Source: Bacteroidales bacterium
GTDB lineage: Bacteria; Bacteroidota; Bacteroidia; Bacteroidales; WRLA01
Assembly: GCA_963676415.1 (NCBI GenBank)
Contig: OY781097.1
Span: 4,732,555-4,796,554, forward strand
Reading direction: 5' to 3'
DNA length: 64,000 bases
Position 1 is the first letter of the stretch. The number at the start of each line of letters is the position of its first letter. Both the position numbers and the translations under genes were made by a program. This document shows, piece by piece, positions 13,435-58,808 of the stretch. The notes below the pieces were generated by a model, which made no database searches, was not told the origin of the DNA, and saw only the letters and a program-made list of their open reading frames with translations.

Positions 13435-13436
13435 AT

Positions 13437-32987: not shown

Positions 32988-33458
32988 TTATTTAAAGCTA
33001 ATCACGCATTTTGCTGTTTTAATTTCTTCAAAAGCCAAAACCTGCGCTTGTTTTTCTTCATCGCTCATTTTTTTCAGCTTGGTTTTTGAAGATGGCAGTT
33101 CGGGTTGCAGCCTGATGTTGTCATCATTTACTGCCAGCAATTCCCCTTTAAATTTCCGACCGTCTTCCATTTCTACTTTTACTGCACGGCCAATATATTT
33201 TCGGTATTGCCTGAGAGTAAGAAGCGGCTGGTCAATGCCATATGTTGTAACATTGAGTTCATAATCCTCTACATCACGGTCGAATTTCCCCTCAACACAG
33301 CGGCTGATCCGAACACAATCGTCAATGGTAAGCCCTTCATCGCTGTCGAGTACAACAAAAATTTTATTGGAAGCACTTACACGGACATCAACCAGATAGT
33401 GCGCACTGCCTTCCAGTTCGTCCGTTACAAGCTTCTCTATGGTATCTTTATGTATCAT
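32988..33458 (-). CDS. rimP: Ribosome maturation factor RimP
   Basis: 156 aa, conserved position upstream of nusA, RimP-like sequence. Confidence 0.85.
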   Translation of the reverse strand: MIHKDTIEKLVTDELEGSAHYLVDVRVSASNKIFVVLDSDEGLTIDDCVRISRCVEGKFDRDVEDYELNVTTYGIDQPLLTLRQYRKYIGRAVKVEMEDGRKFKGELLAVNDDNIRLQPELPSSKTKLKKMSDEEKQAQVLAFEEIKTAKCVISFK

Positions 33459-33641
33459 TCGTAATCAATAAAGAAGGGGACTCTGTCCCCTCCGCCAATA
33501 TCCTTCATACAAAGAAATCCGGTTCTCACCGGATTTCAGGCTGCAAATATAGAAATAATACTAATCTAAGGCAAATAATTTTGAAGAAAACTCCAAAAAA
33601 CCAAAAAGATACTATAAAAAGAAGCTTTCTTCAGGCAAAAA

Positions 33642-36143: not shown

Positions 36144-36324
36144 TCTGTCAGTTTAATTTAGAGCCAAAAACGAATCGGGCTTTTAAAGCCTCTTAAATCA
36201 GTATTTTACAATACATTAGAGAAAGCCGACTAATACAGGTAAAATTAATTTTCAAAAGCTGTGCCACAAAAAAACAGACCTGCTTTCAGAAACAGATCTG
36301 TTCTTCATCTTCAGAAAAACCTAA

Positions 36325-37509
36325 TTAAATCCTGCTATTGTGGTATGTGAGGTGATAAACTTCTTTTAAAATTGCTTTTTCAACCTCATCAAATTCTTTA
36401 TTTCGTCTTTTATAAACGATTTCCGCCACATCAATGGCACGCTTGATATCATAGCCCTGATAGCCGGCAGTACTTCCCCAGATAAAGCTGGATACATAAT
36501 TCCGGTGGTATCCGGCTCCATAAAGGTTTGAGCTTATACCCACAACCGTTCCGGTATTGAACATAGTATCAATGCCGCTCTTGCTGTGATCGCCCATAAT
36601 CAAACCGAGAAACTGGAGGCCGGTATCTACGAAACGTTCTTTGGTATAGCACCAGGCTTTCACGTTTTTGTAATTATTGTTCAGGTTGGATGTATTGGTA
36701 CCTGCTGCAAGGTTGCACCATTCGGCAATAACCGAGCTTCCGAGGTAGCCTCCATGGGGTTTATTGGCATAACTGAACAATATTGAGTTTTCGATTTCAC
36801 CGCCTACTTTACAATACGGACCAATGGTTGTACCGCCATAAATGACCGTTTGCATTTTCACGGTGGCGTTTTCACCCAATGCAACTGGCCCGCGCAGCAA
36901 TGAGCCTTCCATCACAGTAGCATTTTTGCCAATATAAACAGCGCCGGTTTTACTGTTCAGGCTGGCATGGCCTATATCAGCCCCTTCCTCAATAAAAATC
37001 CGGTCGCCGATTGCCATAACACCTTCCGGGATGGCAGCCGATTTACGCCCCTTAGTAATTAAATCGAAATCATCTTCAATAGCACGGGCATTTTGGGCCA
37101 CAATCTCCCATGCATAGCTGATGCGCATAATTTCTGATTGTGTACCGACCTCTTTGATGCCGCCCGTATCGCCTTCACCGATTTTGTCCAGATCTTTGGC
37201 ATCAACCTGAAGTGCGATAATCACATCATCACTGACCAATGCTTCACCCGCTTTTAGGTTTTTAATTTCTTCAACCAAGGTCGGGTTGGGCAATACAGAA
37301 CCATTTATAAGAATATTATGCTCGCCTTTGACTATAGGATATTTAACATTCAGATATTCTTCTGTAAGTGTGGATGTTTTTTCATCCAGATACTTCTCCC
37401 ATTTTTCACGGATTGTCAGTATGCCGACACGCATATCCGCGACCGGGCGCATAAATGTCAATGGCAAAAGTTGGTTTCTTGCATAATCATCAAATAATAT
37501 GTAGTTCAT
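36325..37509 (-). CDS. GlmU-like sugar nucleotidyltransferase / left-handed beta-helix protein
   Basis: The N-terminal MNYILFDD...LPLTF...P is typical of the alternative GlmU-like family, and the C-terminal half has hexapeptide-repeat character. Start placed at MNYILFDD rather than the upstream alternative start. Confidence 0.6.
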   Translation of the reverse strand: MNYILFDDYARNQLLPLTFMRPVADMRVGILTIREKWEKYLDEKTSTLTEEYLNVKYPIVKGEHNILINGSVLPNPTLVEEIKNLKAGEALVSDDVIIALQVDAKDLDKIGEGDTGGIKEVGTQSEIMRISYAWEIVAQNARAIEDDFDLITKGRKSAAIPEGVMAIGDRIFIEEGADIGHASLNSKTGAVYIGKNATVMEGSLLRGPVALGENATVKMQTVIYGGTTIGPYCKVGGEIENSILFSYANKPHGGYLGSSVIAEWCNLAAGTNTSNLNNNYKNVKAWCYTKERFVDTGLQFLGLIMGDHSKSGIDTMFNTGTVVGISSNLYGAGYHRNYVSSFIWGSTAGYQGYDIKRAIDVAEIVYKRRNKEFDEVEKAILKEVYHLTYHNSRI

Positions 37510-37949
37510 GCCTGTAGTTTTTGGTTCAACAATTAGGTTTCGCATGCTAAAAAAGCCCTTATACACTGCATAAGAGCTTTTTTAGTGAGATTGTTCAAAT
37601 ATAGGAAAGATTCTCTGTTCCGACAAATAAGAGCCAAAGTTTTTCATTAAATCTTCATAAACAATTTTAGAGGTCAGTAGACAAATACATAGTTTATGAA
37701 CACCCGTTTATGAATAAATTTTCCTCTACCGAAGCTTCGGTATCTTCGAAATGACTTTTTAATCAGTTGTTTAGGCAAAGGCAGCGCATTTCGGCTTAAT
37801 CCAAATAATTCGCTTAATATGAGATTATTGCAAATTGCAATCATTTATAACAACAGGTCATCTTGATATACGCTTACCTACTTACCCCTAAACATTTTCC
37901 TACACCAAAAAAATCACGAAGAAAAAGGGGCTTCGCTTATCCACAAACA

Positions 37950-37976
37950 AAAAAACTCCCATTGAAAAACGGGAGT
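37950..37976 (-). terminator. Terminator downstream of rpmE2
   Basis: CTCCC...GGGAG stem with a T-run on the minus strand, ~25 nt after the stop. Confidence 0.55.
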
Positions 37977-38001
37977 CAGAAAAATATTTTTGACTAAAAA
38001 T

Positions 38002-38268
38002 CTATTGATTCTTTTTGTCGAAATGCTTTTTGTAGCGGTTCTTGAACTTATCAACACGTCCGGCGCTATCCACAAGTTTGATTTTACCAGTATAAAACGG
38101 GTGAGATGTATGGGAAATCTCCAGCTTTACCAAAGGATATTCGTTACCATCCTCCCACTCGATTGTTTCTTTTGTGTTTACGGTTGAACGTGTTACAAAG
38201 CTATAACCGTTCGACATATCTTTAAAAACAACTTTTCTGTACTCCTTCGGATGTATGTCCTTTTTCAT
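38002..38268 (-). CDS. rpmE2: 50S ribosomal protein L31, type B
   Basis: [10 protein letters not shown]...SHPFYTG without the CxxC zinc motif, which marks type B. Confidence 0.9.
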
Positions 38269-38375
38269 TATAATATTGTCTTAAAAAATTTAGGACTGCA
38301 AAAGTACTTAATTTCCTTGAATGCGCAAACCTAATCTTATTTTTTTTGAAAATTCTTTTTAACCTTTAGTCCTTA

Positions 38376-39470
38376 TTATAAGCCCATCAAAAATCCCATC
38401 GTATCCACCCCATCGGCATAATCCTCAATATTAGGATTTTGCGCATCACCGAAATGAACAGCGCCGGCCAAAAAAGCATGATTGGCAACAATACACTGAA
38501 TTTGATCTGCCTGCAATGCAAGTTGATTTTTGAGCTGATCCAAATCCTGATAAACCTCATAGTGCAAAACTGAAACCGGACTGTTGATGGCCGTATTTTC
38601 CTGCACCAAAAGGAATCCGTTATCAAAATGCGTTTCCTTGTTTACCAAAAAAATGGATTTACGGTAATCGTAATTGTTCTTGTATTTATGATGATTAATA
38701 ATCTCCGCAAAAGGCTCTAAATGAGGGAACAAATCCATTAAAAAATTCTGGTCGGGAATATATATTTTTGAGACCGAACGGCATCCCAAACCGAAAAAAC
38801 TGAAAATGTCGCTGCCCAGGGAATGCAGTTGTTCCGGACTTTCATCACCTTTGAGCACAGCAATGGCATTACGGTTTTTTCGAATGATGTGCGGATATTT
38901 CCCGAAATAATAGTCAAAATAGCGCGCGCTGTTGTTGCTGCCCGTAGCGATGTAAGCTCCGGCGTTTTTGAGCGTGGCGTCCGTAAAGCTGATTTCTTCC
39001 TTCAGACCAGGCAGGACGGCACAGAGCATATCGGACAAAGCCGGGATTAATTCATCGTCGGAAGACGACAATTTTCCCCGAAAACGGTGTCCGCTCATCA
39101 AAACGCACATAAAATCGTGAAAGCCCACGGCAGGAAGGTTGCCCGCCATAATCACGCCGACTTCTTTCGGATTTGCGCTCACTTCCGGATAATTTCCGCG
39201 CCATGCCGCTATTTTTCTTTTATCGGAAAGCATAAAAACCAAAGCGTCCAAAGCCTGACGCACAGATTTTTCCGTAAACCAGGCATTATGGTAATAACTT
39301 TCTGTAATTAAATCTTTTAGCTTCTCAGCAGATGCCTGAAAAGCAAAATCCAGGCTTTCAGTTTCATCAAGCAAAACAGCCCGGATATGCTGACCCAGCT
39401 GATAAAACGCATCAATTCTTTCTTCGGTTCCCGGCTTCATATTCTTTTTTGTAATTTTATGCCGCTTCAT
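38376..39470 (-). CDS. Acyl-CoA reductase (LuxC-like) family protein
   Basis: Length and N-terminal EERIDAFYQLG pattern resemble the Bacteroidetes LuxC-like family. The start could instead be the ATG at 39440. Confidence 0.5.
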   Translation of the reverse strand: MKRHKITKKNMKPGTEERIDAFYQLGQHIRAVLLDETESLDFAFQASAEKLKDLITESYYHNAWFTEKSVRQALDALVFMLSDKRKIAAWRGNYPEVSANPKEVGVIMAGNLPAVGFHDFMCVLMSGHRFRGKLSSSDDELIPALSDMLCAVLPGLKEEISFTDATLKNAGAYIATGSNNSARYFDYYFGKYPHIIRKNRNAIAVLKGDESPEQLHSLGSDIFSFFGLGCRSVSKIYIPDQNFLMDLFPHLEPFAEIINHHKYKNNYDYRKSIFLVNKETHFDNGFLLVQENTAINSPVSVLHYEVYQDLDQLKNQLALQADQIQCIVANHAFLAGAVHFGDAQNPNIEDYADGVDTMGFLMGL

Positions 39471-39535
39471 TCAAAGCAGACGAAAAAATAAATTGCAAAT
39501 TTAGTACGTTTCATAAAACAAACGGGATAACAGCA

Positions 39536-40531
39536 ATGCCTTTAAATATGACGCATAATTATATCAATAAACGAAAAACAAAATATTCCATTCTAAAGAT
39601 ACTGATTTTCAGCTTACTGACACTTATCTCACCGATGCTGTTGCCGGCGCAAAACAGTTTATCTGATGAAAGACTAAGCACTTTGAAAAAAGAAGGGCAA
39701 ATAATTATTGGCAGTCAGGATGCAGGCGAACGCGCAGCAGCCAATCAAAAATTCAAAGCAGAACTTCAAAACCTGCTTAAAGATGCAAAAAGTTACGGGC
39801 TGACTTTCGACAGTATTAGCAATTTGTCCGTTTTATCTCCGCCCGACAATAGTTTCCGTATTTTCAACTGGATGCTTCCCGAAAAGTGGGGCGAAATGGA
39901 ATTTTTAGGCATCATTCAAATTGCGCCGAAAAATGGCAGCGACAAATGCCACATCATTGAACTTCACGACAAATCGCAGGAAATTGATGAAGCAGAATTC
40001 AAACAGCTCAATAATTCGAATTGGTTTGGTGCATTATACTATGCGATGATCCCACATGAAACTGACGAAGGAATCAATTACACCCTTCTGGGCTGGAACG
40101 GCAACAACAACACATCGAATAAAAAAGTGATTGAAATCATGCAATTTGATGATAAAGGAAATGTTGTTTTCGGGAAAAACTGCTTTCGGGACCAACCTAT
40201 GATCATGCGCCGGATTTTTGAATATCATGAACAAACCAGTATGTCGTTGAAATATGAAGAGCAAAGCTATTTTGAAAGCGACAAAGACCGCATGAAAGGC
40301 AAATCGAAGAGTGAACAAATGATTGTTTTCACCCGTTTGTATCCCTTGTCGCCACAACTCAAAGGCCAGTACGAATATTATTATCCATCGGCCAATGTGG
40401 TGGATGGATATGTTTTTCGAGACGGACAATGGACATTATACGAACATATTGACGCGCGCAATGCCGCATCGCCCGGCGACATGAAAAAACTGGATGAAAG
40501 TAAAATGGATCTTTTTCAACAACCTAAATAA
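39536..40531 (+). CDS. Hypothetical secreted protein
   Basis: Signal-peptide-like hydrophobic stretch ILKILIFSLLTLISPMLLPAQ; no recognised domain. Confidence 0.55.
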   Translation: MPLNMTHNYINKRKTKYSILKILIFSLLTLISPMLLPAQNSLSDERLSTLKKEGQIIIGSQDAGERAAANQKFKAELQNLLKDAKSYGLTFDSISNLSVLSPPDNSFRIFNWMLPEKWGEMEFLGIIQIAPKNGSDKCHIIELHDKSQEIDEAEFKQLNNSNWFGALYYAMIPHETDEGINYTLLGWNGNNNTSNKKVIEIMQFDDKGNVVFGKNCFRDQPMIMRRIFEYHEQTSMSLKYEEQSYFESDKDRMKGKSKSEQMIVFTRLYPLSPQLKGQYEYYYPSANVVDGYVFRDGQWTLYEHIDARNAASPGDMKKLDESKMDLFQQPK

Positions 40532-40537
40532 AACTAA

Positions 40538-41275
40538 ATGTACCGCATTACTGCCGTTTCCTACCTCAACACTTACCCACTCATTTACGGACTGAAAAAT
40601 TTCCTGCCCGATGAAAATGGATTGCATTTTGAAACTGCCGTACCTTCGGAAGTGGCGCGCAGACTCAAAAATCAGGAAACGCAAATCGGACTGATTCCCG
40701 TGGCCGCATTTCCCGGAATCCCACAGGGCAACATCATCAGCAAGTATTGTATTGGGGCTGAAGGAGCCGTAAGAACCGTAATGCTCTATTCGAAAAAGCC
40801 GCTGAATGAGATCAAAAGCATTGCACTCGACAGCGATTCGCGCACATCGGTAATGCTTGCTCGCGTTTTGGCCAAACATTACTGGAAAATCAGTCCCGAA
40901 TGGGAAAAAATGAAGTCAAACAGTTTAAATCAGGCAGAGGCAATGGTTTTGATCGGCGATAAGACTTTCGGTGCATTTCCCGAACACCATTTTGTTTATG
41001 ACCTGGCCGAAAGCTGGAAGGAATTTACCGGCCTGCCTTTCGTTTTCGCCGTATGGGCAGCCAATTGTCCCATTCCCGGAGATTTTAAGGATCAGTTTGA
41101 CATGGCGCAGTCAGAAGGACTGAAACGAATTGCCGAAAGCATCCTCCGCCTTCCGGAAAATGTGAGCATGGCCCGGGCGGTGGATTATTTGCAATGCTCC
41201 ATCAGTTTTGATCTGGATGATGCAAAAAAAGAAGCAATGGCTTTGTTCTTAAACTATTGCGATTCCTTATCCTGA
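40538..41275 (+). CDS. mqnA: Chorismate dehydratase (futalosine pathway step 1)
   Basis: YRITAVSYLNTYPLIYGL N-terminus and ~245 aa periplasmic-binding-protein-like fold typical of MqnA. Confidence 0.6.
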   Translation: MYRITAVSYLNTYPLIYGLKNFLPDENGLHFETAVPSEVARRLKNQETQIGLIPVAAFPGIPQGNIISKYCIGAEGAVRTVMLYSKKPLNEIKSIALDSDSRTSVMLARVLAKHYWKISPEWEKMKSNSLNQAEAMVLIGDKTFGAFPEHHFVYDLAESWKEFTGLPFVFAVWAANCPIPGDFKDQFDMAQSEGLKRIAESILRLPENVSMARAVDYLQCSISFDLDDAKKEAMALFLNYCDSLS

Positions 41276-41949
41276 TTTTCTTTTTTGATTTGCATGGTGT
41301 AGATGTACTTGGCAATCATTAAAGCAATAACGATGGCCACATAAAACTGCCCGAAAATCCCAAAAAGGATAGACAACATCCGTGAAGCCGAAAGCTGTGG
41401 CAAAATATCCCCATAACCGATTGTAATCAGCGTGGTAAAGCTGTAATAAGTCAAATCGACCAAAACATTTTCACCGCTACCGCTGATATTAAATGCGTGG
41501 GGGTAGAGAATAAAGATCAAGTGGTTCAGTATCGCAAAAATAAAGCCCAACAATAAATATCCTGAGGCCACTCCGGCGATGGCATCTTCATCCACTTCCG
41601 GAATGCGAAAAAGCTGCTTCATCAGGTTAACAAAAACCCCAATTAAGAAAAGAGCACTAAAAGCTGTCCCTGCGATATCAAGCTTTGAATCAGCATACTG
41701 CACCTGAACCCAATGCAGCAGAAGAGCGCCAATGGCCAGAAATACAATCCCCTGCAATAATGCACGGAACTGCCGGATAAAATTCACACAAGCCAAAAGA
41801 AATAAAGTAAACACAAAAGCCCTTAAACTTTTCAATGCTAAGGTATTCTGATATAAAACTACCGGCAAGACTATTTGCAGAATCAAGGTAATCAGCAGCA
41901 GCCAGAAACGCTGTTTGAGAAGGCTTTTTAGATAGTGGATCTTTTTCAT
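41254..41949 (-). CDS. Small potassium-channel family protein
   Basis: Selectivity filter TTLITIGYGD preceded by several TM helices. Start placed at MKKIHYLK; the longer ORF would run into the recF promoter region. Confidence 0.75.
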   Translation of the reverse strand: MKKIHYLKSLLKQRFWLLLITLILQIVLPVVLYQNTLALKSLRAFVFTLFLLACVNFIRQFRALLQGIVFLAIGALLLHWVQVQYADSKLDIAGTAFSALFLIGVFVNLMKQLFRIPEVDEDAIAGVASGYLLLGFIFAILNHLIFILYPHAFNISGSGENVLVDLTYYSFTTLITIGYGDILPQLSASRMLSILFGIFGQFYVAIVIALMIAKYIYTMQIKKENQDKESQ

Positions 41950-42013
41950 AGTTTTCAAAAATAAGAAATTCATCAAAACCAAGGGAAAATGTATTTTTGC
42001 ACAAAGCTTTGCC

Positions 42014-43123
42014 ATGCACTTAAAAAAACTCAAACTGGCCCAATTTAAAAACTGCTTGGAAGCAGATCTGGAATTATCAGAAAAAATCAATTGCTTTGTG
42101 GGATACAATGGCGCAGGCAAAACCAATATCCTCGATGCCATTTATTACCTTTCTTTTTGCAAAAGCTATTTCAATCCTTCCGACAGCCAGAACATCAAGC
42201 ATGGGGAAGATTTTTTTGCCATTCATGGCTATTACGAAAACAGCGCGGGCGAGGAAGACCTGGTGCAGTGCATACAGAAAAAAGGCCAGCCCAAGCAGTT
42301 CCGCAAAAACAAAAAAGACTACCAGCGCCTGGCCGATCATATCGGGCTTATCCCTTTGGTAATGATCAGCCCTTACGACCGCGACCTCATCAACGATGGC
42401 TCGGAGCTGCGCCGGAAATATATGGACAGCGTTATCGCACAATTTGATAAAGATTATCTGGACAATCTTATCCGCTATAATAAAAGTGTACAGCAAAGAA
42501 ATATCTTACTGAAACATTTTGCCACACAGCAGCAATTCGACCAAAACCTGCTTGAGCCCTGGGATCAGCAACTGATTGTGCTGGGAGAAAAAATCCATGA
42601 AGTGCGCAAGAAATTTATTGAAGAATTCGCGCCGGTTTTTCAGGATTATTACCGCTTTATTTCCGGGCAACAGGAGGAAGTAAGCATAGAATACAGTTCA
42701 CAGCTTTTGCAGCACAGCACCGAAGAACTGCTGCGCAAAAACCTGGAGCGCGACCGCATATTGAAATTTACCGGAAGCGGCGTACACCGCGACGACCTGA
42801 ATTTCAGGATTTCGGGATATCCTCTCAAAAAATTCGGCTCCCAGGGCCAGCAAAAATCCTTTGTTATTGCCATTAAGCTGGCACAATACAAGCACACCCG
42901 GATCATCAAAAATTTCAAACCGATTATTTTACTGGATGATATTTTTGACAAACTGGACGACAAACGGGTGGACCAGATTATTGAAATGGTGAGCAATGAC
43001 GGTTTTGGCCAGATTTTCATCAGCGACACACAGCGCGAACGCGTAGAACGGATTTTCCAACACCACAAAGTAGCGCACAGGATATTTTCGGTGGATGGAG
43101 GAATAATTCAGAATGAAAAATAG
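42014..43123 (+). CDS. recF: DNA replication and repair protein RecF
   Basis: Walker A GYNGAGKTNILDAIY, SMC-like signature GSQGQQKS, and Walker B ILLDDIFDKLD. Confidence 0.9.
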   Translation: MHLKKLKLAQFKNCLEADLELSEKINCFVGYNGAGKTNILDAIYYLSFCKSYFNPSDSQNIKHGEDFFAIHGYYENSAGEEDLVQCIQKKGQPKQFRKNKKDYQRLADHIGLIPLVMISPYDRDLINDGSELRRKYMDSVIAQFDKDYLDNLIRYNKSVQQRNILLKHFATQQQFDQNLLEPWDQQLIVLGEKIHEVRKKFIEEFAPVFQDYYRFISGQQEEVSIEYSSQLLQHSTEELLRKNLERDRILKFTGSGVHRDDLNFRISGYPLKKFGSQGQQKSFVIAIKLAQYKHTRIIKNFKPIILLDDIFDKLDDKRVDQIIEMVSNDGFGQIFISDTQRERVERIFQHHKVAHRIFSVDGGIIQNEK

Positions 43124-43194
43124 AATTAGGCCTCCACATACCAAACAAAGATGCCGGAGCGTTGTTATTTCTCAAACAAGAAACGCGTAAAAAA

Positions 43195-43425
43195 ATGCTC
43201 AAATTACTCCTTCTGACTACAGTTCTTCTCGGAATTGCCTTTGCCGGCATTGCCATTAAGATGTTTGTGTTTAAAAACGGTGTTTTTACCAAGTCATGCA
43301 GCTCTCACGACGACAGTGCAGGGAAACATGGCGGTTGTGTGTGCGGCGGCACGGATAAATCGAAATGCAAAAACAAGAACAAGCATAAAGAGTTCAACAT
43401 TAAGGTGGAGCCCTATCGCGGATAA
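43195..43425 (+). CDS. Small membrane protein with a Cys-rich tail
   Basis: One N-terminal TM helix (LLLLTTVLLGIAFAGIAI), then CSSHDD...GGCVCGG...KC. The ATG at 43195 is preferred to the TTG at 43162. Confidence 0.45.
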   Translation: MLKLLLLTTVLLGIAFAGIAIKMFVFKNGVFTKSCSSHDDSAGKHGGCVCGGTDKSKCKNKNKHKEFNIKVEPYRG

Positions 43426-43553
43426 ACCTTGCCTAAGAAGTATCTGCTGTTTTTAAGCTGTTTTCTCATTTAGAAAAACCTTTGTATTGGCGTTGCAATG
43501 CCGTTGCAACACCGTTTCAACAGCATTGCAAGGCCAATGCAGATTATATAAAC

Positions 43554-43592
43554 GAAAGATTTACACCCATTCTTCCTTTAGCAATTCTCCCT
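43554..43592. repeat. Left copy of a 39-bp direct repeat (orphan copy of the 3' end, including the stop, of the 4Fe-4S gene)
   Basis: 37 of 39 positions are identical to 44119-44157. The reverse complement encodes GELLKEEWV-stop. Confidence 0.85.
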
Positions 43593-44118
43593 CCTGTTTT
43601 CCAGATAAGACACCAGTTTTTAACTTTAGGCATCTGTAAACTCTAAAAATATTGAATATAAAGCATGTCTTCGACCACTGTTTTTATTCCTTTTGTCTTG
43701 GCACAAAAGGAACCAAAAAGCCAAGTCAAAACAATGCTTCCCCCCGCTCTTCCCGATACCAAGAATTTCCAATCAAAGTAGTGCCTCGTGCCTCGGCAAA
43801 GCTGTTGCCCTTTGATGGAAATTCTAAGCATCGGGAATTCACCCTCATCCGGCCCGCTGTTTTGACAGGCCGCCCCACTGTCTAAACGAGGATGATTCTT
43901 GTTTTAAAAACAATTGGATTAAAATTTTCGTCTAACGTAAAATCAATAGACGTATGCGCATAACAGGAGAATAATCCTGATTGCACAAATATCTTTATTG
44001 CCAACAAATAGCTATTAAAATGAAATCAAGACGCCCAAACTCAAAGCATTAGCCTCATTAAAATATTGATATTAAGATAATTAACTTTTTGACTATTTAT
44101 TATCCAAAAAACAGAAAA
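43593..44118. mobile_element. Element E1: 526-bp non-coding insert (conserved core plus AT-rich arm)
   Basis: Homologous along its whole length to 45897-46397: the core is nearly identical and the arm roughly two-thirds identical by eye. It is bracketed by the 39-bp direct repeat. Confidence 0.7.
43665..43905 (-). ncRNA. Candidate structured RNA (conserved core of E1); strand tentative
   Basis: ~241 nt are nearly identical to 45969-46209, with a 1-nt indel that breaks any common reading frame. There is a 26-27-nt imperfect hairpin (43752-43778 with 43810-43835) and a 9-bp hairpin (TCCTTTTGT/ACAAAAGGA). Two plus-strand A.C/C.A mismatches become G.U on the minus strand. Confidence 0.35.
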
Positions 44119-44157
44119 GAAAGATTTACACCCATTCTTCCTTCAGCAATTCCCCCT
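44119..44157. repeat. Right copy of the 39-bp direct repeat (functional 3' end of the 4Fe-4S gene)
   Basis: See 43554-43592. Confidence 0.85.
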
Positions 44158-45028
44158 GCAAGCCAACAATAATGGATTTCACCGGCACTTTTCGGTTGGC
44201 ATTGGCCTGTGCAGCTTTCACGATATGGAGCAAACCGCTGCAACAAGGCACCTGCATCATCATCACTGTGATGGTATTCACTTTTGCGTCATCAATCATC
44301 ATGCGCACTTTTTCGATATAAGAATCTATGCCCTGATCCAGCTTGGGGCAAAGCACGGCCAGACTTTTGCCTTTAAGGTAATCCTGATGGAAATTTCCCA
44401 TAGAAAACGCAACACAATCGGCTGCAAGCAAAAGGTCGGAGTTTTGAAAATAGCTGGCATTGGGCTGCACGAGATGCATTTGCACCGGCCACTGCTTTAG
44501 TTGGCTAGGCTGCGTTCCCAAGGCAGCAGCCGGCACATCCGGATCAATATTTCCAAAGTCCATACTTTTTGAGCCCGGACATCCCCCTCCTTGGTGATGA
44601 TGCATTTGAGCGACTTGCTGAACGGCTTGTGGTTTTTTGCCACTGTTATGCACCTCACGGATGACTTCTTTTACATCAAAATCAATTTTTCCTTCATTTT
44701 CGAGCAAATAATTTACGGCCTCTTTGAGATAAACCGTTTCATTATGATCTTTCAGGTGCTTCATATGTGCCAAGACCGTATTGCGGCCTTTTTGGATCAT
44801 CAAGGCAATTACCTCTGTTTCGCTATAGGGCTGTGCTTCACGCTTTTCAATACTGATGGCGTCCTGCGGACAATGTCCCAGGCAGGCACCCAACCCATCG
44901 CACATCAAATCACTAACTAAGCGCGCTTTTCCATCAATGATCTGCAAAGCACCTTCATGGCATCCGGGCACACAAAGTCCGCAACCATTACATTTTTCTT
45001 CGTCGATATGAACAATTTCTCTTTCCAT
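44126..45028 (-). CDS. 4Fe-4S dicluster (ferredoxin-type) domain protein
   Basis: The N-terminal CNGCGLCVPGC ... CDGLGACLGHCP gives two CxxCxxCxxxCP-type clusters. The C-terminal domain has additional cysteines (VPCCSG). Confidence 0.75.
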   Translation of the reverse strand: MEREIVHIDEEKCNGCGLCVPGCHEGALQIIDGKARLVSDLMCDGLGACLGHCPQDAISIEKREAQPYSETEVIALMIQKGRNTVLAHMKHLKDHNETVYLKEAVNYLLENEGKIDFDVKEVIREVHNSGKKPQAVQQVAQMHHHQGGGCPGSKSMDFGNIDPDVPAAALGTQPSQLKQWPVQMHLVQPNASYFQNSDLLLAADCVAFSMGNFHQDYLKGKSLAVLCPKLDQGIDSYIEKVRMMIDDAKVNTITVMMMQVPCCSGLLHIVKAAQANANRKVPVKSIIVGLQGELLKEEWV

Positions 45029-45083
45029 GGCGTATCATTTTTTTAATTTTGAGACAAATATATTGTGCCCCAGAATTAAAAAC

Positions 45084-45099
45084 TGTAACCTAAGTTACA
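45084..45099. promoter_or_regulatory. Candidate Crp/Fnr-family operator, TGTAAC-N4-GTTACA
   Basis: Perfect 6-4-6 palindrome in the 106-bp divergent region between the 4Fe-4S gene and the Crp/Fnr gene. A second palindrome, GGTAT-TTTG-ATACC, lies at 45104-45117. Confidence 0.45.
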
Positions 45100-45134
45100 A
45101 TTTGGTATTTTGATACCGAAATTAACAAAATATT

Positions 45135-45812
45135 ATGACAACTGCCGCATATCTCAGCCAATGCATTCTTTTTAAGGGATTAAAGGAGCATGAAATCGAA
45201 CTCCTTTTAAATCAAATCCATTATCAGGAAAAGAGTTTTAAAAGGGAATCTCTCATCGCACAAAGCGGAGATGAAACCACCGCCCAACTGATTCTTTTGA
45301 GCGGCAGTGTACGCGGTGAAATGATGGACTTCAATGGAAAAGCCATTAAAATTGAAGATATAAAAGCCGTACGTATGCTTGCTCCTGCATTTTTGTTTGG
45401 GAAGCAGAATCATTATCCGGTTTCCATTATTGCCAACGAAGAAAGCCGGGTTCTCCACATCCCCAAAAATGATTTCCTGAAATTGCTTGGCTCCAACGAG
45501 CTGATTTTAAGGAATTACTTAGATAATATTTCCAGCCGGGCCCAATTTTTATCTGAAAAAATTAAATTCCTGTTTTTCCAGGACATCAAGGGGAAACTGG
45601 CACATTATTACATGACAAAACTCAGGGAAAGCAGTTCTCAAACCATTAGAATGGAAAGTTCGCAGGAACAATTGGCGGTACTTTTTGGCGTTAGCCGTCC
45701 GGCATTGGCGCGGAGTATCAAAGAGTTGCGCGAAGATAAAATCATTGAAACACATGGAAAAGAAATCCGGATCCTGAATGTTCAGGCCTTAAAAGCCTTG
45801 GTCAGGGAATAG
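45135..45812 (+). CDS. Crp/Fnr-family transcriptional regulator
   Basis: N-terminal cNMP-binding-like beta-roll and a C-terminal HTH (SQEQLAVLFGVSRPALARSIKELRED). Confidence 0.85.
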   Translation: MTTAAYLSQCILFKGLKEHEIELLLNQIHYQEKSFKRESLIAQSGDETTAQLILLSGSVRGEMMDFNGKAIKIEDIKAVRMLAPAFLFGKQNHYPVSIIANEESRVLHIPKNDFLKLLGSNELILRNYLDNISSRAQFLSEKIKFLFFQDIKGKLAHYYMTKLRESSSQTIRMESSQEQLAVLFGVSRPALARSIKELREDKIIETHGKEIRILNVQALKALVRE

Positions 45813-45896
45813 TCCTAACCGCCAATTTTATAAGTCAATACAATACCCGAACCTCCACCGGGCATAATTGCCGGGGCAAAACTGAATTTCCTCTTT
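45740..45896. repeat. Left copy of a 157-bp direct repeat (functional Crp/Fnr 3' end plus an orphan PAP2 3' end)
   Basis: 154 of 157 positions are identical to 46398-46554. Confidence 0.9.
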
Positions 45897-46397
45897 CCAA
45901 ATTTCCTTATAAGACAGCCATTTGTAAAATAGAGTGTTAGTATTTCATATGGATACTGGATATCAATTATGCCTTCGACCGCTGTTTTATTCCTTTTGTC
46001 TTGGCACAAAAGGAAGCAAAAAGCCAAGTCAAAACAAAGCTTCCCCCCCGCTCTTCCCGATGCCAAGAATTTCCAATCAAAGTAGTGCCTCGTGCCTCGG
46101 CAAAGCTTTAGCCCTTTGATGGAAATTCTAAGCATCGGGAATTCACCCTCATCCGGCCCGCTGTTTTGACAGGCCGCCCCGCGGTCTAAACGAGGATGAT
46201 TTTTGTTTTGCAAACATTTTGACAAGATAAAAAATAATAGAAGTGATCTGATTTAAAACCCTTCATTATTAATACGTATGGCTGACAATTATCACTTAAG
46301 ATGAAATCAAAAACCATATTCTTACAGTTTAGAGCTATAAAATATTAATAATGAACAACTAATTTTATAATTGTATCAAATACAGAAAACACAAAAG
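45897..46397. mobile_element. Element E2: 501-bp non-coding insert, sibling of E1
   Basis: Same architecture and orientation as E1, bracketed by the 157-bp direct repeat. Confidence 0.7.
45969..46209 (-). ncRNA. Candidate structured RNA (conserved core of E2); strand tentative
   Basis: See 43665-43905. In this copy the A.C position of the long hairpin is a G-C pair. Confidence 0.35.
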
Positions 46398-46554
46398 AAT
46401 CATCGAAACACATGGAAAAGAAATCCGGGTCCTGAATGTTCAGGCCTTAAAAGCCTTGATCAGGGAATAGTCCTAACCGCCAATTTTATAAGTCAATACA
46501 ATACCCGAACCTCCACCGGGCATAATTGCCGGGGCAAAACTGAATTTCCTCTTT
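46398..46554. repeat. Right copy of the 157-bp direct repeat (orphan Crp/Fnr 3' end plus the functional PAP2 3' end)
   Basis: See 45740-45896. Confidence 0.9.
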
Positions 46555-47324
46555 TCGGCATCCATTCTTCCCGAAGCACGCTTATGAACAAAACGGCCAA
46601 TAGCATAGCCCAGAACAGAACCTGCAAGCACATCGGAAGCCCAGTGTTTGTTTCCGTATATGCGCGAGATGGCCGTAAGCCCTGCCAGACCGTAGGCGAT
46701 CCCTCCTACCCATTTATTTTCAGAATATTCGGAGGCTACAACCGCAGCCACAGCAAACGAAAGCGAAGAATGCCCGGAAGGAAAGGACAAAAAATCCGTA
46801 CTCAATGAAGGACCGCCCCAGATATAGGCATCCGGAGGCTCATGCTCGTTGGGGCGGTGACGATGAAAAAACATTTTGAAGCCTCCTGTAAAAACCGTGG
46901 TAACCATAAAAGCCCGAAAAGCAGTGAGGCTGGTAAAAGCAAGGCGGTCATTTTTCCCGATTCGGGCAGCGGTATAAGTCAGCCCCATCGCAGGCAGCAC
47001 ATATTGAAACGACCACATATCATTCAATAAATTCTCACTTTGCTGTGTGATAAAGGGCGAATCATGATCAAGCAAAAAAGTATGGATATCTTCATCAAAA
47101 ACCATCAATCCGCCGGTTACCGCTGCAAAGCCACCAAATTTTATCCATGATTTGCCGTCCCATTTCAGGGGAGCCAGACCCGTTTGAATAAAATCACCCC
47201 CAAAATCCTGAAACCATTGCCCGTTAATTCGTACCGGATAATGTACAGCACTGTCCTGAGCTTTTGCAGTTGTACGTGTTAGTCCCAGCAAAAGGATCAA
47301 AAAAAACAAATTCCTTAACCTCAT
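46473..47324 (-). CDS. PAP2-superfamily phosphatase
   Basis: Signal peptide plus the tripartite PAP2 signature (HRHRP, PSGHS, SRIYGNKHWASD). Confidence 0.85.
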   Translation of the reverse strand: MRLRNLFFLILLLGLTRTTAKAQDSAVHYPVRINGQWFQDFGGDFIQTGLAPLKWDGKSWIKFGGFAAVTGGLMVFDEDIHTFLLDHDSPFITQQSENLLNDMWSFQYVLPAMGLTYTAARIGKNDRLAFTSLTAFRAFMVTTVFTGGFKMFFHRHRPNEHEPPDAYIWGGPSLSTDFLSFPSGHSSLSFAVAAVVASEYSENKWVGGIAYGLAGLTAISRIYGNKHWASDVLAGSVLGYAIGRFVHKRASGRMDAEKRKFSFAPAIMPGGGSGIVLTYKIGG

Positions 47325-47632
47325 TTACTGACTTTCCCTATTTTTTCTTCAATGCTGGCCGGCTTTTTTTCCATGCGGTTTTCAGCACCTTTTCGGATAT
47401 CGAATTTCAGGCTGGAATACACGCGTTCGCAATCTTCTTCCAGCTGTGCATAGGATTCCCTGACCACTTCCAAAGCTTCATCCAGTGTATCGGTTTCAAC
47501 GATGGTTCCCATTGCAGTGAGTTGGTAGTTATAACCTTTATCACGGATATGGGCAATGATGCGCTTCACATAATCGCTTACGCTTGCTCCCTTATCGGTT
47601 GGGAACATAGCAAATTCGAGCAATACTGACAT
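47321..47632 (-). CDS. MTH1187/YkoF-like thiamine-binding family protein (DUF77)
   Basis: ~100 aa. MSVLLEFAMFPTDKG.SVS.YV...I..I...G..Y.LT.MGT..E is typical of the family. A 4-nt overlap with the downstream PAP2 gene suggests an operon. Confidence 0.6.
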   Translation of the reverse strand: MSVLLEFAMFPTDKGASVSDYVKRIIAHIRDKGYNYQLTAMGTIVETDTLDEALEVVRESYAQLEEDCERVYSSLKFDIRKGAENRMEKKPASIEEKIGKVSK

Positions 47633-47691
47633 ATTTTATAAAATCATTGATGTTTGTGCCTCCAAAAATAACCCTAAAAGCCGAATAACGT

Positions 47692-48435
47692 TCAAAGCTG
47701 CGATTTATTCCATATCTCCCATGATGCATCTGCTTGCAATTCCAGCATTTTCAGGCCATTTTCGGTTTGCGCTCCCCTTGCAGCAGCTTTTTGGAGAAAT
47801 GCGGTCTGCTCCGGATTATACACCAGGTCAAAAAATAACTGGTGACTGCCCGCCCCATCCCAAGGTAGATCAGGACAGCTTTCCACATTGGGATACATTC
47901 CCAAAGGCGTGGTATTGATGATCAAATCAAAAGCGGTAAAAGCAGCCTCATCCAAAGTTTTGTAGCACAAGATATTTGCTGCAGGATTTCGGGAAACCAA
48001 ATGGCAGGAAATACCCAGTTTTTGCAAAACATAAACCACAGCTTTTGATGCACCGCCTGTACCCAATACCAAAGCATTTTTTCGTTGATGACCGTTTTTC
48101 AGGCGCAAAGCTTTTTCAAAACCATAAGCATCGGTATTGTAGCCCTTGAATTTCCCTTCCGGGCTTTTCAGGATGCAGTTTACTGCGCCAATAGCTGATG
48201 CTGCATCATCAAGCAAATCCATGAAAGGGATTACCGATTGTTTATAAGGAACCGTCACGTTCAGCCCCATGAGCCGGGGATAAGTTTTCCAGAGTTCGGG
48301 AAATCCTTGTATGTTTTCTATAGGAAATAGCCGGTAAGCATGATCATCAAGTTCCAAATGGCGGAACTTTTCAGCAAAATAAACAGCCGACCATGAATGT
48401 CCCAGCGGATATCCGATCAGGCCGAAAGTTTTCAT
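47692..48435 (-). CDS. aroE: Shikimate dehydrogenase
   Basis: GLIGYPLGHSWS N-terminal motif, NVTVPYK, and the NAD(P) loop LGTGGASKAV. Confidence 0.85.
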   Translation of the reverse strand: MKTFGLIGYPLGHSWSAVYFAEKFRHLELDDHAYRLFPIENIQGFPELWKTYPRLMGLNVTVPYKQSVIPFMDLLDDAASAIGAVNCILKSPEGKFKGYNTDAYGFEKALRLKNGHQRKNALVLGTGGASKAVVYVLQKLGISCHLVSRNPAANILCYKTLDEAAFTAFDLIINTTPLGMYPNVESCPDLPWDGAGSHQLFFDLVYNPEQTAFLQKAAARGAQTENGLKMLELQADASWEIWNKSQL

Positions 48436-48437
48436 GC

Positions 48438-49052
48438 TTAAAAAAGATATTTGATCGCCACAAAACCACCAATTAGAAGAACAGTAAAGAGGATGGCGAG
48501 CAGGTTAAAGTATTTGTCGATGAACGCTTTAATGGATTTTCCGTATTTCCAGATGAGCCATGCCACGAGGAAGAACCTTCCGGCTCGTGACACCAAAGAA
48601 GCAATGACCACCATAAAAATGTTCACGTTGAAGGCCCCTGCTGCGATGGTAAATACTTTAAACGGAATGGGTGTAAATCCGGCGGTGAAAACCACCCAGA
48701 AATTCCACTGTTCGTACAATGCCTGTACTCGGTCGAAAACTACTGTCGTAAATCCGGGAATATTATCGAAGAAGAAATTGGCCACGGAAGAGAAGGAACC
48801 ATCGGCGCCCCACCAAATGGCATAGCCGATATAATATCCGAAAATGGCTCCGGTAGCCGAGCCAATGGTTGCATTGAGTGCATAGCGGAAGGCTTTGTTT
48901 TGCGCGCCCAGCACCAGCGCAATCAACAGAGGATCGGGAGGAACGGGGAAAAAGGATGCTTCGGCAAAAGACAAAACAAAAAGCGCCACAGCCCCGTAAG
49001 GACTTTCTGCCCAGTGCAATACCCAATCGTATAATTTTCGGAAAATATTCAT
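48438..49052 (-). CDS. YqaA/DedA-like (SNARE-associated) membrane protein
   Basis: Four to five TM helices with FPVPPDPLL, typical of the family. Confidence 0.6.
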   Translation of the reverse strand: MNIFRKLYDWVLHWAESPYGAVALFVLSFAEASFFPVPPDPLLIALVLGAQNKAFRYALNATIGSATGAIFGYYIGYAIWWGADGSFSSVANFFFDNIPGFTTVVFDRVQALYEQWNFWVVFTAGFTPIPFKVFTIAAGAFNVNIFMVVIASLVSRAGRFFLVAWLIWKYGKSIKAFIDKYFNLLAILFTVLLIGGFVAIKYLF

Positions 49053-49156
49053 CAGCTTTTATTTTTGGTCGGCAAATTATGATTAAGCAGCCTTTTTATA
49101 CTATTCTGTTTTAATAATTTTTCCTTTCGGAAAGTAGAAATCCTGCTTTCAGATAC

Positions 49157-50581
49157 TTATTGTTCGTCGGTAAAATCATCACCTGCATATTGATCCAGCA
49201 AATCAAGAAATGCTTCATTCTCAACCAGACCGGCATCATAAACATAGGTTTCATGAAAAAGCCGGGCGTTGATTTGCAGTCCTTTTTCAAATTCTGCAAG
49301 AGCTGTTGGGACATCACCACTTAAAGCCAAAATGCCGGCCAGTCGAAAATGCAGTACTGCATGTGCCGGAATATGGATCAAAGCCTCCTGCAGTGATGCA
49401 ATAGCTTCTTGTGTATTTTCGAGTTCGAGATAGGCAGCAGCACGTTCCAACCAGGCGTCCGCATTTTCTTTTTCCAGAAAAATAACCCGGTTATAGGCTT
49501 CGACTGCTTTATCAAAACGATTCAGGCGCATTTGCAGGTCGCCCATCACAAACCAGTTATCGCCGGTATTGGGTTCCAGCTCAATAGCTTTTTCCACATA
49601 AGGCAAAGCCTCTGACGGACGCTCCATTTCTGCCAGACAAACACCGATACCCAGCCAGGTATCTGATGAAAAGCTGTCGAGTTCGAGCGATTTGCGGTAA
49701 TTTTCCAGCGCATTGGCATAATCGCCCAGCTTTTCAAAACACTCGCCCATATAGAAATAAGTAAGGTAGTCGCCGGGTTCGTATTTTGCAGAATCCCTGT
49801 ACGATTCTATGGCCTCCTGAAAACGGCCCAGATTGGCCAGGCTGTTTGCACGGTTGAAAATGGATGAAGCATGTTCTTCATCAATGGCCAAAGCAAAATC
49901 ATATGCTTCAATGGCTTCTTCCTGCTGGTCGAGGGCACTATAAGCCAAACCCAGATTAAACCAGCCAATGGTAGAAAAAGGGCGTTCATCGAGATAGGCC
50001 TTGTAAAAACCAATAGCATCGCTGTGCTTTTGCGCCATTTCGTAGCAAAAAGCCAGCTCAGTCAGTACAGATTCATTATCATAATCCAGCGCCAGTGATT
50101 TCTTCAGGTAATCGATTGCTTGTCCGTATTCGCCCAGCTTTTCATATTCGAGGGCAATGCTCGAAAAAGCTTCTTCCTGCACGTCTTCATCGCTGAGCGA
50201 TTTCATAAATTCAGCAATAGAAGCTTCATTACGGTTGAGCTTACTGTATATAGCGCCTTTGGTAAGGAATATTTCGGAATTTCCGGGTTCCAGCTGTTCT
50301 GCCTGAGAAAGGATGTTCAAAGCCTTGTCCTCTTTGTTCTCAGCAGAAAAAAGTTGTGCCTGCTTAATTTTCAGGCTAACATGAGAAGGATAAATCTGCA
50401 ATGCAAATCGCAATGCCTGATTGGCGCGCGAAAGCATGTCATTATCAAGGTAATAGTTAATGATGCTCTCGAAATCTTCCACATCAAAGAAGTAAGATTC
50501 CTTCCGGTTCAGCATATCTTCATAGCGACCCAGAAGCCCCCCGAATTCCTCCTCATCTATTGGACCAAATTGTGTATTCAT
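49157..50581 (-). CDS. Tetratricopeptide-repeat protein
   Basis: Repeated 34-aa A/Y/L/G/P patterns run through 474 aa (e.g. AIEAYDFALAIDEEHA, ALENYRKSLELD). Confidence 0.8.
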   Translation of the reverse strand: MNTQFGPIDEEEFGGLLGRYEDMLNRKESYFFDVEDFESIINYYLDNDMLSRANQALRFALQIYPSHVSLKIKQAQLFSAENKEDKALNILSQAEQLEPGNSEIFLTKGAIYSKLNRNEASIAEFMKSLSDEDVQEEAFSSIALEYEKLGEYGQAIDYLKKSLALDYDNESVLTELAFCYEMAQKHSDAIGFYKAYLDERPFSTIGWFNLGLAYSALDQQEEAIEAYDFALAIDEEHASSIFNRANSLANLGRFQEAIESYRDSAKYEPGDYLTYFYMGECFEKLGDYANALENYRKSLELDSFSSDTWLGIGVCLAEMERPSEALPYVEKAIELEPNTGDNWFVMGDLQMRLNRFDKAVEAYNRVIFLEKENADAWLERAAAYLELENTQEAIASLQEALIHIPAHAVLHFRLAGILALSGDVPTALAEFEKGLQINARLFHETYVYDAGLVENEAFLDLLDQYAGDDFTDEQ

Positions 50582-56442: not shown

Positions 56443-57054
56443 TCCGGCTAAGCAAACCAATACCTTCCGCAAGGCACAAAAGCAGCTTTCTTTCAACAGC
56501 TCTTGTTGCCTTGATATTTTCATGCGCATCAAAAATTATTTCTACGACTATGATCATCAATCTAAATACTTGAAGTAAATCCAACAAGACCTTAGCAATT
56601 ATTAAAAGCATGCGGGATTACGGCAATTTTGTAAGGCAAATTTTTACCGATTTTTTCGGTAATTTCCCGCAAAACCCTGATTATCCCTACAGGGGTTTTC
56701 CTGCTACCATCGCTATACCATCGCGCTACCAAGACGCTGCAAATACTTTGCGGGCAGCCGGCTGCTGCGGGCTTGCTTCGGGCAGATATTCTGTAAATAT
56801 ACTAATTAGAGTTTGTCCACAGAGTCGAGAGTTTGCTCTATAAAGTTCAAATTCAAGGCGTGTGAAAAATCCAAACCGGATAATACTCAAGTATTTGAGG
56901 ATTTGGATTTTGAGCAACAACGCAGAAGTTGGACTTTATAGACGAACTCCAATTAAGGCAAATTAGACCTACTCATCGGATGACTGGGAGTCATCCGATG
57001 AGTAGCGTTATCCGATGGGTGCTATGAATCATATGAGGTATCACGGAATATCAG

Positions 57055-58279: not shown

Positions 58280-58437
58280 AGCAATTGATTTTTGATGCAG
58301 CAAAGATAGGCAAGAATTATTAAAAAGCAAGAAAAATTTATTGTTAAACAATAATTTTATTTTGAATAACAATAATTACTCCTTATATTAGAGGTTCTAC
58401 ACTGTATTTCGTGGAAAGAAACTTGAATGCTATTCCA

Positions 58438-58649
58438 AACAGATTCCTCCAAAGTTTCCTCATACTTCGGAAAACTTTGTCGGAATGACGCGTTTTTATG
58501 AAGTCAGGAGGCAAATGCGGCGAGGACACAGTAGTATATTTTAAATACGTCCTCGCCGCATTTGCCTTAAACACCTAATAAACAGCGTCATTCCGACCGG
58601 AACAAAGCTAAACGAAATGATTAAAGCTTTGTGTAGGGAGGAATCTGTT
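58438..58649. repeat. 212-bp nested-palindrome element
   Basis: Three concentric perfect inverted repeats: AACAGATTCCTCC (58438-58450 with 58637-58649), GTCGGAATGACGC (58479-58491 with 58585-58597), and GGCAAATGCGGCGAGGAC (58510-58527 with 58549-58566). Confidence 0.8.
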
Positions 58650-58808
58650 AGGGATACCATAGGTCATTAATAAATATCTGCATATTTTTTTTCAAACATT
58701 ATTGTAACCCACGAAATTCCTAGTAGAACCATTTAGAATACAGCCTGGAAAGATAATTGTGCAAGCACTATTTTCCAGAATGCGCCGTTTATAAAGAAAG
58801 CCCATTTT

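Follow-up and report, generated by a model that had tools for sequence, protein, structure and literature searches.

Within a 64,000-nucleotide stretch of a Bacteroidales bacterium genome (assembly GCA_963676415.1, contig OY781097.1, positions 4,732,555 to 4,796,554 of the forward strand), in the following called the window, the gene of a 4Fe-4S protein (Fer4; 44126-45028, minus strand), the gene crp of a Crp-family regulator (45135-45812, plus strand) and a PAP2 phosphatase gene convergent to crp (46473-47324, minus strand) are accompanied by two related sequences, named E1 (43593..44119, plus strand, 527 nt) and E2 (45897..46397, plus strand, 501 nt). E1 has the stop codon of the Fer4 gene on one side and, on the other, a large hairpin (43483-43541) that is taken to be the former terminator of this gene; E2 lies between crp and the PAP2 gene. 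An original prediction, made from the letters of the window, had singled out a core of about 241 nt shared by both sequences as a structured non-coding RNA or a protein-binding scaffold. Our analysis identified E1 and E2 as two complete copies of a transposable element that is small (about 500-530 nt) and non-autonomous, carries no gene and resembles miniature transposable elements with inverted repeats (MITEs). The reading that explains the observations best, and which we hold to be probable, is a MITE-like element that generates target duplications of 38 to about 230 bp and has the core as its functional module, likely in the form of a structured RNA of the minus strand.

Both copies are enclosed by long direct repeats. 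The repeat of E2 measures 157 bp, with its left copy at 45740..45896 and its right copy at 46398..46554, which are identical at 154 of the 157 positions (differences T/C, A/G and G/A). It spans the 3' ends of the convergent genes: in the left copy, crp has its intact 3' end and PAP2 only a 3' remnant, and in the right copy it is the crp 3' end that is a remnant and the PAP2 3' end that is intact, so one complete end of each gene survives. For E1, the left copy (43555..43592, 38 nt, or 43 nt with AAACG included at the cost of one more mismatch) holds the final 32 nt of the Fer4 gene as a remnant, while the real stop codon and the last codons are located in the right copy (44120..44157); the repeat thus covers the last 32 nt plus the stop codon of the gene. 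Comparison with three related genomes (OZ245940.1, ERZ21831251 ctg13056l and ERZ21878204 ctg9566l) revealed the corresponding empty sites. The metagenome-assembled genome (MAG) Bacteroidales bacterium OZ245940.1 has a RecF 98% identical to that of the window, and window 32543-49332 has a collinear counterpart in the MAG locus L011, with a nucleotide identity of 92-98%. In L011, crp and the PAP2 gene are 2 nt apart, E2 is absent, and the 157-nt segment is present once (18188-18344) and aligns to both window copies. The E2 site is also empty, with a single-copy 157-bp segment and again 2 nt between crp and the PAP2 gene, in loci L015 and L017, which were found via the PAP2 cluster and have 92-97% nucleotide identity to the window. 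The same two loci lack E1: the Fer4 gene and a gene of 87/91 amino acids are separated by 136 nt, and the 38-43-nt segment is single (L015 12511-12553). In L011, E1 is present at the orthologous place, at about 16018-16567, in nearly identical form. From these filled and empty sites, the window genome has both insertions, the MAG only E1, and the two other genomes have neither. Thus the element family is mobile within a group of closely related Bacteroidales genomes, and exact filled and empty sites in sister genomes allow both cut positions to be read directly. In the next relative, with a RecF of 73% identity, synteny was lost and no copy was found.

Seven copies were obtained in total, in two genomes and at six loci, five of them in the MAG. 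The alignments below comprise six copies, E1, E2 and the MAG loci L001-L004; the seventh copy is the MAG orthologue of E1 in L011. A scan of 185,579 species representatives with a 22-mer of the core matched a single genome, again OZ245940.1, at L001-L004. The window contains no further copy besides E1 and E2. No plasmid of PLSDB and no phage of INPHARED was matched by E2 in blastn, IMG/VR was negative in two exact-pattern scans, and a metagenome scan with a pattern of 19 specified bases returned only six chance 20-mers. Profiles of the core and the right arm (nhmmer) detected no further or diverged copies in the window and in all fetched loci except L005-L010 and the L016 right arm. The collection of homologues that had been proposed was thus carried out by pattern scans and profiles, with a poor yield, and therefore there was no power for a covariation analysis.

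Long repeats also flank two of the copies at the other loci. Convergent genes, for ComEC and a SpoU methylase, again enclose L002, whose repeat is about 140 nt long and about 80% identical; in L003, the repeat is about 230 nt long and 97% identical. In L004, another MITE, a fragment of an IS110-type gene and an IS1380-type insertion sequence (IS) interrupt the right end. Surviving insertions are positioned at or just inside gene 3' ends, and the duplication leaves the neighbouring genes whole; for E2 and L002, it restores the 3' ends of both convergent genes. The long duplication lets the element land in the last codons without gene damage, even where convergent genes are separated by only 2 nt. 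The duplications of two other, likewise polymorphic MITE families of these genomes measure only 5-7 bp, hence the long duplications are a property of the E1/E2 family and not of the host. The two target strands would be cut far apart and at variable spacing, which would duplicate 38 to about 230 bp of target, and by analogy to the behaviour reported for IS1549 and IS1634 the cuts may be made by a DDE-type partner transposase working in trans. Candidate target signals were rejected: a REP-like motif (CCGTTGCAAC) occurs at chance frequency, a shared motif CAyCCATTCTTCC matches at 16 of 20 positions, which is the chance level, and a tRNA-type integration site was considered and discarded.

The element measures 501-575 nt when nested inserts are excluded. 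From left to right, the six-copy layout consists of the terminus CCTGTTTTCCGGATAAGA, about 85 moderately conserved nucleotides, the core, about 200 poorly conserved nucleotides and the right terminus, with CCTGTTTTCCGGATAAGA on the left and TTATCC(N)AAAAACAGAAAAG on the right as boundary motifs. The left terminal repeat, conserved in all copies of the alignment, reads CCTGTTTTCCAGATAAGA in E1 (43593..43610, plus strand), with the equivalent CCAAATTTCCTTATAAGA in E2 (45897-45914). The right terminus of E1 is TTATCCAAAAAACAG followed by AAAAG (44098..44119, plus strand), its E2 equivalent is located at 46377-46397, and the form common to the copies is TTATAATCC-AAAAACAG, then AAAAG; this terminus is A-rich (...CA(G/C)AAAAG), and the complete elements end in ...CACAAAAG (E2) and ...CAGAAAAG (E1). 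The terminal AAAAG belongs to the element: the empty sites have AAACG at this place, the right junction of E1 reads AAAAG, and E2 ends in the same AAAAG. The terminal inverted repeats are imperfect and about 15 nt long (CTGTTTTCCGGATAA); in E1, 12 of 15 positions match the reverse complement of the right subterminus. In those open reading frames (ORFs) of the window that were scanned, no domain of a transposase, reverse transcriptase or integrase was detected, and as a conserved ORF is also missing, the element was classed as non-autonomous.

Alignment of the six copies placed the conserved core at 43682..43900 in E1 (originally 43665-43905) and at 45985..46204 in E2 (originally 45969-46209), both assigned to the minus strand; the E2 core, the proposed structured RNA, is 95-97% identical to the five other copies, its flanks only 41-67%. 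Between E1 and E2, the 241-nt cores differ by 10 substitutions and two one-base indels, one in a C-run and one in a T-run at 43681, as counted from the alignment, and the tighter core matches at 211 of 219 positions (96%). Outside the core, the identity drops to 64% on the left and 60% on the right, so the earlier statement of about ten differences within the core and two-thirds identity in the rest was accurate. The constraint proposed on this basis extends to all six copies, which come from two genomes: core identity is 92-97% across all 15 pairs, in comparison to 59-85% in the left flank and 38-72% in the right flank. The left flank of E1 is closer to that of L004 (85%), in another genome and at another locus, than to that of E2 (64%), hence there are subfamilies that differ in their arms and share the core. 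Although the duplication of L002 has decayed to about 80% identity, its core is still 93-96% identical to the others, which points to an old insertion and to constraint after insertion. A functional module of the element, with all other parts including the terminal repeats having drifted, is the role that the core would more probably than any other have. Over about 650 nt, only a substitution, a 23-nt indel and a further substitution distinguish E1 from its MAG orthologue. The whole tract 43486-44200, with E1, the duplication and the adjacent hairpin, differs from L011 by 2 substitutions and one indel, while the flanking genes differ by 2-8%; this suggests a recent transfer of the tract between lineages by homologous exchange.

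A coding function was not indicated. No ORF is common to all six copies. The longest frame, on the minus strand, stays open for 86-96 codons in four copies and lacks a conserved start; in E2 it is shifted, in L002 and L004 it is broken. The 43 substitution cells are spread 13/16/14 over the codon positions, and the ratio of synonymous to non-synonymous changes is about 1:3 in every frame. The six-frame translation of the core, used as protein query against 5.8 billion sequences, retrieved no relative. A small protein was rejected for the lack of codon-position bias, of a shared ORF and of a protein relative. The earlier view that a conserved peptide is unlikely was retained on the evidence of six copies; the frameshift argument originally offered for it is, when taken alone, weaker than was stated, for the second indel, in the T-run, compensates the C-run indel in frame.

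Nor does the core belong to a described RNA family. Rfam 15 at the gathering threshold had no match in the 64-kb window, and at E <= 10, around E1, E2 and the long-form MAG copy, only chance eukaryotic miRNA and snoRNA models and two unrelated bacterial RNA models appeared, far below their gathering scores. ARAGORN detected no tRNA or tmRNA. The original failure to recognize a named family was thus borne out, including HEARO/omega-RNA, group II intron, retron, 6S and tmRNA models. Both strands fold better than shuffled sequences: E1 folds with -74 kcal/mol on the plus strand (z = -4.0) and -105 kcal/mol on the minus strand (z = -6.1); the z-scores of E2 are -5.65 (plus) and -5.6 (minus). The RNAalifold consensus reaches -87 kcal/mol with 80 pairs on the minus strand and -64 kcal/mol on the plus strand.

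Three structures dominate the minus-strand fold. Domain 1 (46143..46199) consists of an 11-bp and an 8-bp helix with an internal loop between them; these helices, numbered 2 and 3, are 100% and 96% paired. Five of their pairs are G.U and fixed or nearly so; on the plus strand they would be A.C, and the consensus there keeps only 2 pairs in this domain. The long hairpin, with 27 pairs the most conspicuous helix (46054..46141 in E2, 43750-43837 in E1), has outer 22-nt arms complementary to 86% in E1 and 91% in E2, and its apical part carries a GAGGCAC GAGGCAC repeat. The 10-bp hairpin TTCCTTTTGT-CTTGGC-ACAAAAGGAA (45990..46015 in E2, 43687-43712 in E1) has all ten stem pairs invariant in the six copies. 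Its 6-nt loop is complementary to GCCAAG at 46023-46028 in E2 and 43720-43725 in E1, and both could form a pseudoknot; of two loop changes, one fits the pseudoknot on each strand, which makes them uninformative. A CGGCC/GGCCG stem is nested in TCATCC/GGATGA. The long hairpin, the CTTGGC-loop hairpin, its GCCAAG complement and the nested stem had been listed in the original prediction and were recovered, the CTTGGC-loop hairpin with 10 bp. An additional long-range complementarity was noticed between 43720-43733 and 43859-43871, with perfect stretches of 9 bp and 3 bp (GCC..GTCAAAACA / TGTTTTGAC.GGC). It encloses the long hairpin and competes with the 8-bp helix of domain 1; both pairings could coexist in the 23-nt long-form variant, a hint at alternative conformations.

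The pairing has a polarity. In helices 2-4, the minus strand has six G.U pairs that are shared by all copies or by five of the six and would be A.C on the plus strand. Four substitutions at Watson-Crick pairs yield G.U on the minus strand, and none yields A.C. Every fixed wobble pair and every substitution that creates a wobble is G.U when read on the minus strand. Three changes on a single side of the long hairpin either leave pairing intact on the minus strand alone or re-establish a Watson-Crick pair. The mismatches A.C and C.A, which had been pointed out as wobble pairs of the opposite strand, were correctly described: only E1 has A at 43758, where the five other copies have G; 43760 forms C.A with 43827 in five copies and T-A in L002. 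The 23-nt variant of domain 1, present in two MAG copies, folds as GCCUGUC-GAAA-GACGGGC in the MAG copy of E1 and as GCCUGCC-GAAA-GGCGGGC in L002, which is a compensatory change from U-A to C-G beneath a GNRA loop and exists only on the minus strand. The consensus energy, the G.U pairs and substitutions and the GAAA-hairpin variant favour an RNA, or another single-stranded form, of the minus strand, in agreement with the weak preference stated originally. With a centre conserved far better than the ends and helices that favour one strand, the observations point to an RNA or single-strand function carried by a transposon. The original claim of a structured non-coding RNA is thus supported in part, namely in the slow evolution, the lack of a peptide and of an Rfam match and the strand preference; what it had missed is that the core, instead of being an RNA gene on its own, lies at the centre of a mobile, MITE-like element.

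An RNA of the core would depend on the neighbourhood of the element. A Bacteroidetes-type promoter conserved inside the element was not found, and scans for sigma-70 promoters and terminators performed no better than on shuffled sequences. For five of the six copies, there is a gene whose end is 11-85 nt away from the element's right end or which in another way reads into the minus strand of the element. As genes end toward the right terminus in these copies and a conserved internal promoter is missing, read-through from the adjacent gene is the likely source of any RNA. A gene whose 3' end abuts the right end would be read through and yield a minus-strand RNA of the core, which would fold into the 11+8-bp domain, the 27-bp long hairpin and the 10-bp hairpin. 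It may then act as a stable structure of the 3' untranslated region or as a processed small RNA, and it could make insertions tolerable or useful to the host or be needed by the element itself. About half of the weight of our best explanation lies on this RNA mode of action, in which we infer RNA rather than DNA as the active form, its origin from the minus strand and its synthesis by read-through transcription.

Alternatively, the core may act at the level of DNA, as a binding platform or an extruded-hairpin substrate for the transposase or a host factor, so that only copies with an intact core propagate and an RNA function is not involved. We regard this as unlikely. If selection acts on the ability to transpose, a core conserved across subfamilies with differing flanks would be expected; with weak terminal repeats, recognition might use internal sequence; the pairing of the long hairpins is good enough for them to arise in DNA, and a single-stranded DNA intermediate would yield the same strand asymmetry as an RNA. 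However, 219 contiguous nucleotides at 92-97% identity far exceed the need of transposase or host-factor sites as they are generally known from the ends of DDE elements. The helices depend on many G.U-type pairs on one strand, and the reliance on G.U together with a GNRA-type GAAA loop, which has a compensatory pair in one variant, is typical of RNA. The conserved core of the old copy L002 also indicates a constraint that persists after insertion.

Concerted evolution by gene conversion, without any selected function and with exchange ceasing where the flanks are too different, is a more doubtful explanation of the core. Signs of exchange are present. The three differences between E1 and its MAG orthologue all cluster in about 85 nt of the core, the 23-nt indel is shared with the non-orthologous L002, and the variant sites 43735, 43790, 43804 and 43872-43873 group the copies in conflicting ways. 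Gene conversion between copies therefore probably contributes to the homogeneity of the core and could inflate the apparent constraint. Conversion alone cannot explain diverged arms beside an undiverged core: new copies begin identical along their full length, which leaves flanks at 38-70% identity unexplained, the E2 core is as close to the MAG copies (95-97%) as those are to each other, and substitutions in helices are biased toward keeping pairs on one strand.

A role of RNA in the insertion itself appears very unlikely. In such a scheme, the core would be the cis-acting RNA of a mode of mobility so far undescribed in bacteria, an RNA-dependent insertion (retroposon-like or RNA-assisted), in which nicks are set tens to hundreds of base pairs apart, gene 3' ends are preferred and are regenerated by the duplications; this would be a bacterial counterpart of short interspersed elements (SINEs). 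The stricter version, a SINE-like retroposon with an RNA copy, a reverse transcriptase primed at the target nick and the core as the structure recognized by the enzyme, is likewise very unlikely. It would fit the long and variable duplications, the asymmetric ends with an A-rich right terminus, the resemblance of the first bases of the duplicated target to this terminus (AAACG, TAAAAT and GGCAAAG at three sites) and the better conservation of an internal structured region than of the ends. Yet a retroposon has no need of the inverted repeat formed by the termini, a 5'-truncated copy was not seen and L001 keeps both ends, the A-rich end implies a plus-strand RNA while the structure favours the minus strand, and a reverse transcriptase was found neither in the window nor in the fetched loci; we know of no bacterial retroposon of this type. 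Non-mobile paralogous genes for host small RNAs or small proteins, as two well-conserved intergenic copies and the minus-strand frame open in four copies might suggest, can practically be dismissed in view of the presence/absence polymorphism with exact single-copy target sites in three related genomes, the consistent element ends at unrelated loci and the defects of that frame described above, together with its missing codon-position bias and protein relatives.

Several observations weigh against the interpretation as a transposon with an RNA-level core. Regarding the transposon, the terminal repeats are weak (shuffle p = 0.02-0.67 per copy), even if the motif is nonetheless found at both ends of all copies; the ends are asymmetric, the right one having the 5 extra nucleotides AAAAG; and the termini are less conserved than the core. 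For a DDE transposon, termini less conserved than the interior are unusual. A partner transposase with matching ends was found neither in the window nor in the fetched loci; the IS1380-type IS near L001 and L004 was rejected as partner, its ends (CCTAACCTAAATTATTCATAAAC) being unrelated to those of the E1/E2 family. L001 has both termini and no detectable duplication. Furthermore, precise loss by homologous recombination between the long repeats would give the same single-copy site as an empty target, but insertion is favoured over loss by parsimony, with two or three empty genomes per site. Regarding the RNA, covariation, suggested originally as a test, is without statistical support: 60 of the 80 pairs never vary and shuffle controls were not exceeded. 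The set comprised only six to seven very similar sequences with 97.5% of cells paired, and the main alignment has only one compensatory pair, with one more in the hairpin of the 23-nt variant; covariation cannot be shown statistically because the copies are too similar. The asymmetry of the wobble pairs is partly circular, as helices 2 and 3 were delimited by the minus-strand fold, and single-stranded DNA would exhibit it as well.

Other mobile and structured sequences were observed in the same genomes. A second MITE family of about 338 nt is present in the window (58393-58730), in L004 (1493-1753 and 5856-5954) and in L017 (14649-14988). It has terminal inverted repeats of about 25 nt (GGTTCTAC...GTAGAACC), a central GC-rich hairpin and a 6-7-bp duplication; the L017 copy occupies a site that is empty in the window (41955-41984), and an L004 copy interrupts the right end of the E1/E2-family copy there. 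A third small element of about 220-280 nt with termini AGAGGTCAGTAGA... was located at window 37670-37889 and L003 4236-4519. Its window copy is absent from the MAG orthologue and has a duplication of about 5 bp (ATTTT), and the relative in L003 is nested in the copy of the E1/E2 family. Nested ISs in the MAG (L004 1-1262; L001 6236-7936) comprise an IS110-type gene truncated at 141 codons by the IS1380-type IS, which encodes a DDE_Tnp_1_4 transposase domain (E = 1e-144 for the L001 copy). Window 56810-56955 forms a long, imperfect hairpin (about 145 nt, -55 kcal/mol, z = -7.7), which is also found twice in L003 (3809-3964 and 4865-5020), there inside the target duplication of about 230 bp; window and MAG sequences are 88-90% identical and have no Rfam match, and the hairpin could be a foldback element or a small RNA. 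L011 holds an additional 4.4 kb between recF and the 87-aa gene (11094-15562, corresponding to window 43107-43138) with four genes carrying C-terminal sorting domains of the type IX secretion system; this block is absent from the window and L017, and a similar block is present in L015. A single ORF of 3646 codons covers window 32-10972, its start being within 32 bases of the window edge.

To our knowledge, target duplications this long and variable are known in bacteria only for IS1634 and IS1549. For these two, direct repeats of 8-514 bp have been reported, with an unexplained mechanism (PMC2266710). The E1/E2 family shares the long and variable repeats, here 38-43, 157, about 140 and about 230 bp, but IS1634 and IS1549 are autonomous elements of 1.5-2 kb that encode their transposase, whereas the present family has no gene. 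Most members of the IS1634 family duplicate 5-6 bp, and their end consensus (C-----YT) is too vague for a comparison; a DDE transposase of this family was not found in the window or the fetched loci. Long target duplications are rare among bacterial transposons, and a small non-autonomous family now displays the same behaviour as IS1634 and IS1549.

Among structured RNAs inside mobile elements, the IS110 bridge RNA, the TnpB/IscB omega-RNA (HEARO), group II intron domains and retron msr/msd are of comparable size (150-300 nt). The core differs from them by the lack of an Rfam match and of an adjacent cognate protein gene, and their elements create no or very short duplications. A bridge RNA was rejected specifically: only L004 is near a truncated IS110-type gene (837-1262), on the strand opposite to the one favoured for the RNA and with another MITE between, and the long duplications contradict it. 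A diversity-generating retroelement was likewise discarded on account of the T/C, A/G and G/A differences between the E2 repeats, the failure to find a reverse transcriptase in the ORFs scanned and the single-copy state of the repeat in the relatives. An analogy is offered by the CORE-type SINEs, in which a central domain is kept across subfamilies with differing heads and tails and the duplications are variable. These are however eukaryotic, transcribed by polymerase III, mobilised by long interspersed elements and free of terminal inverted repeats, and an RNA intermediate is not indicated for the E1/E2 family.

The bacterial MITEs with effects at the RNA level, Correia/NEMIS, ERIC, RUP and BOX, are small, gene-less, multi-copy sequences bounded by inverted repeats, which insert in intergenic regions or at gene 3' ends, are co-transcribed and form stable hairpins. 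The E1/E2 family resembles them in small size, lack of genes, copy number, 3' or intergenic position and hairpin formation. They differ in a length of 100-200 nt, in duplications of 2-10 bp and in a folding mainly by the terminal repeats. Compared with the bacterial MITEs described so far, the present elements, at about 500 nt, are larger and have duplications 10-100 times longer and an internal structured module of 220 nt that is better conserved than the termini. The core is a candidate for a new RNA motif without Rfam counterpart, and the element possibly pays its way, or moves, via a structured RNA. The family is best described as a MITE by architecture, combined with IS1634-like long duplications and a strongly conserved core that probably acts at the RNA level.

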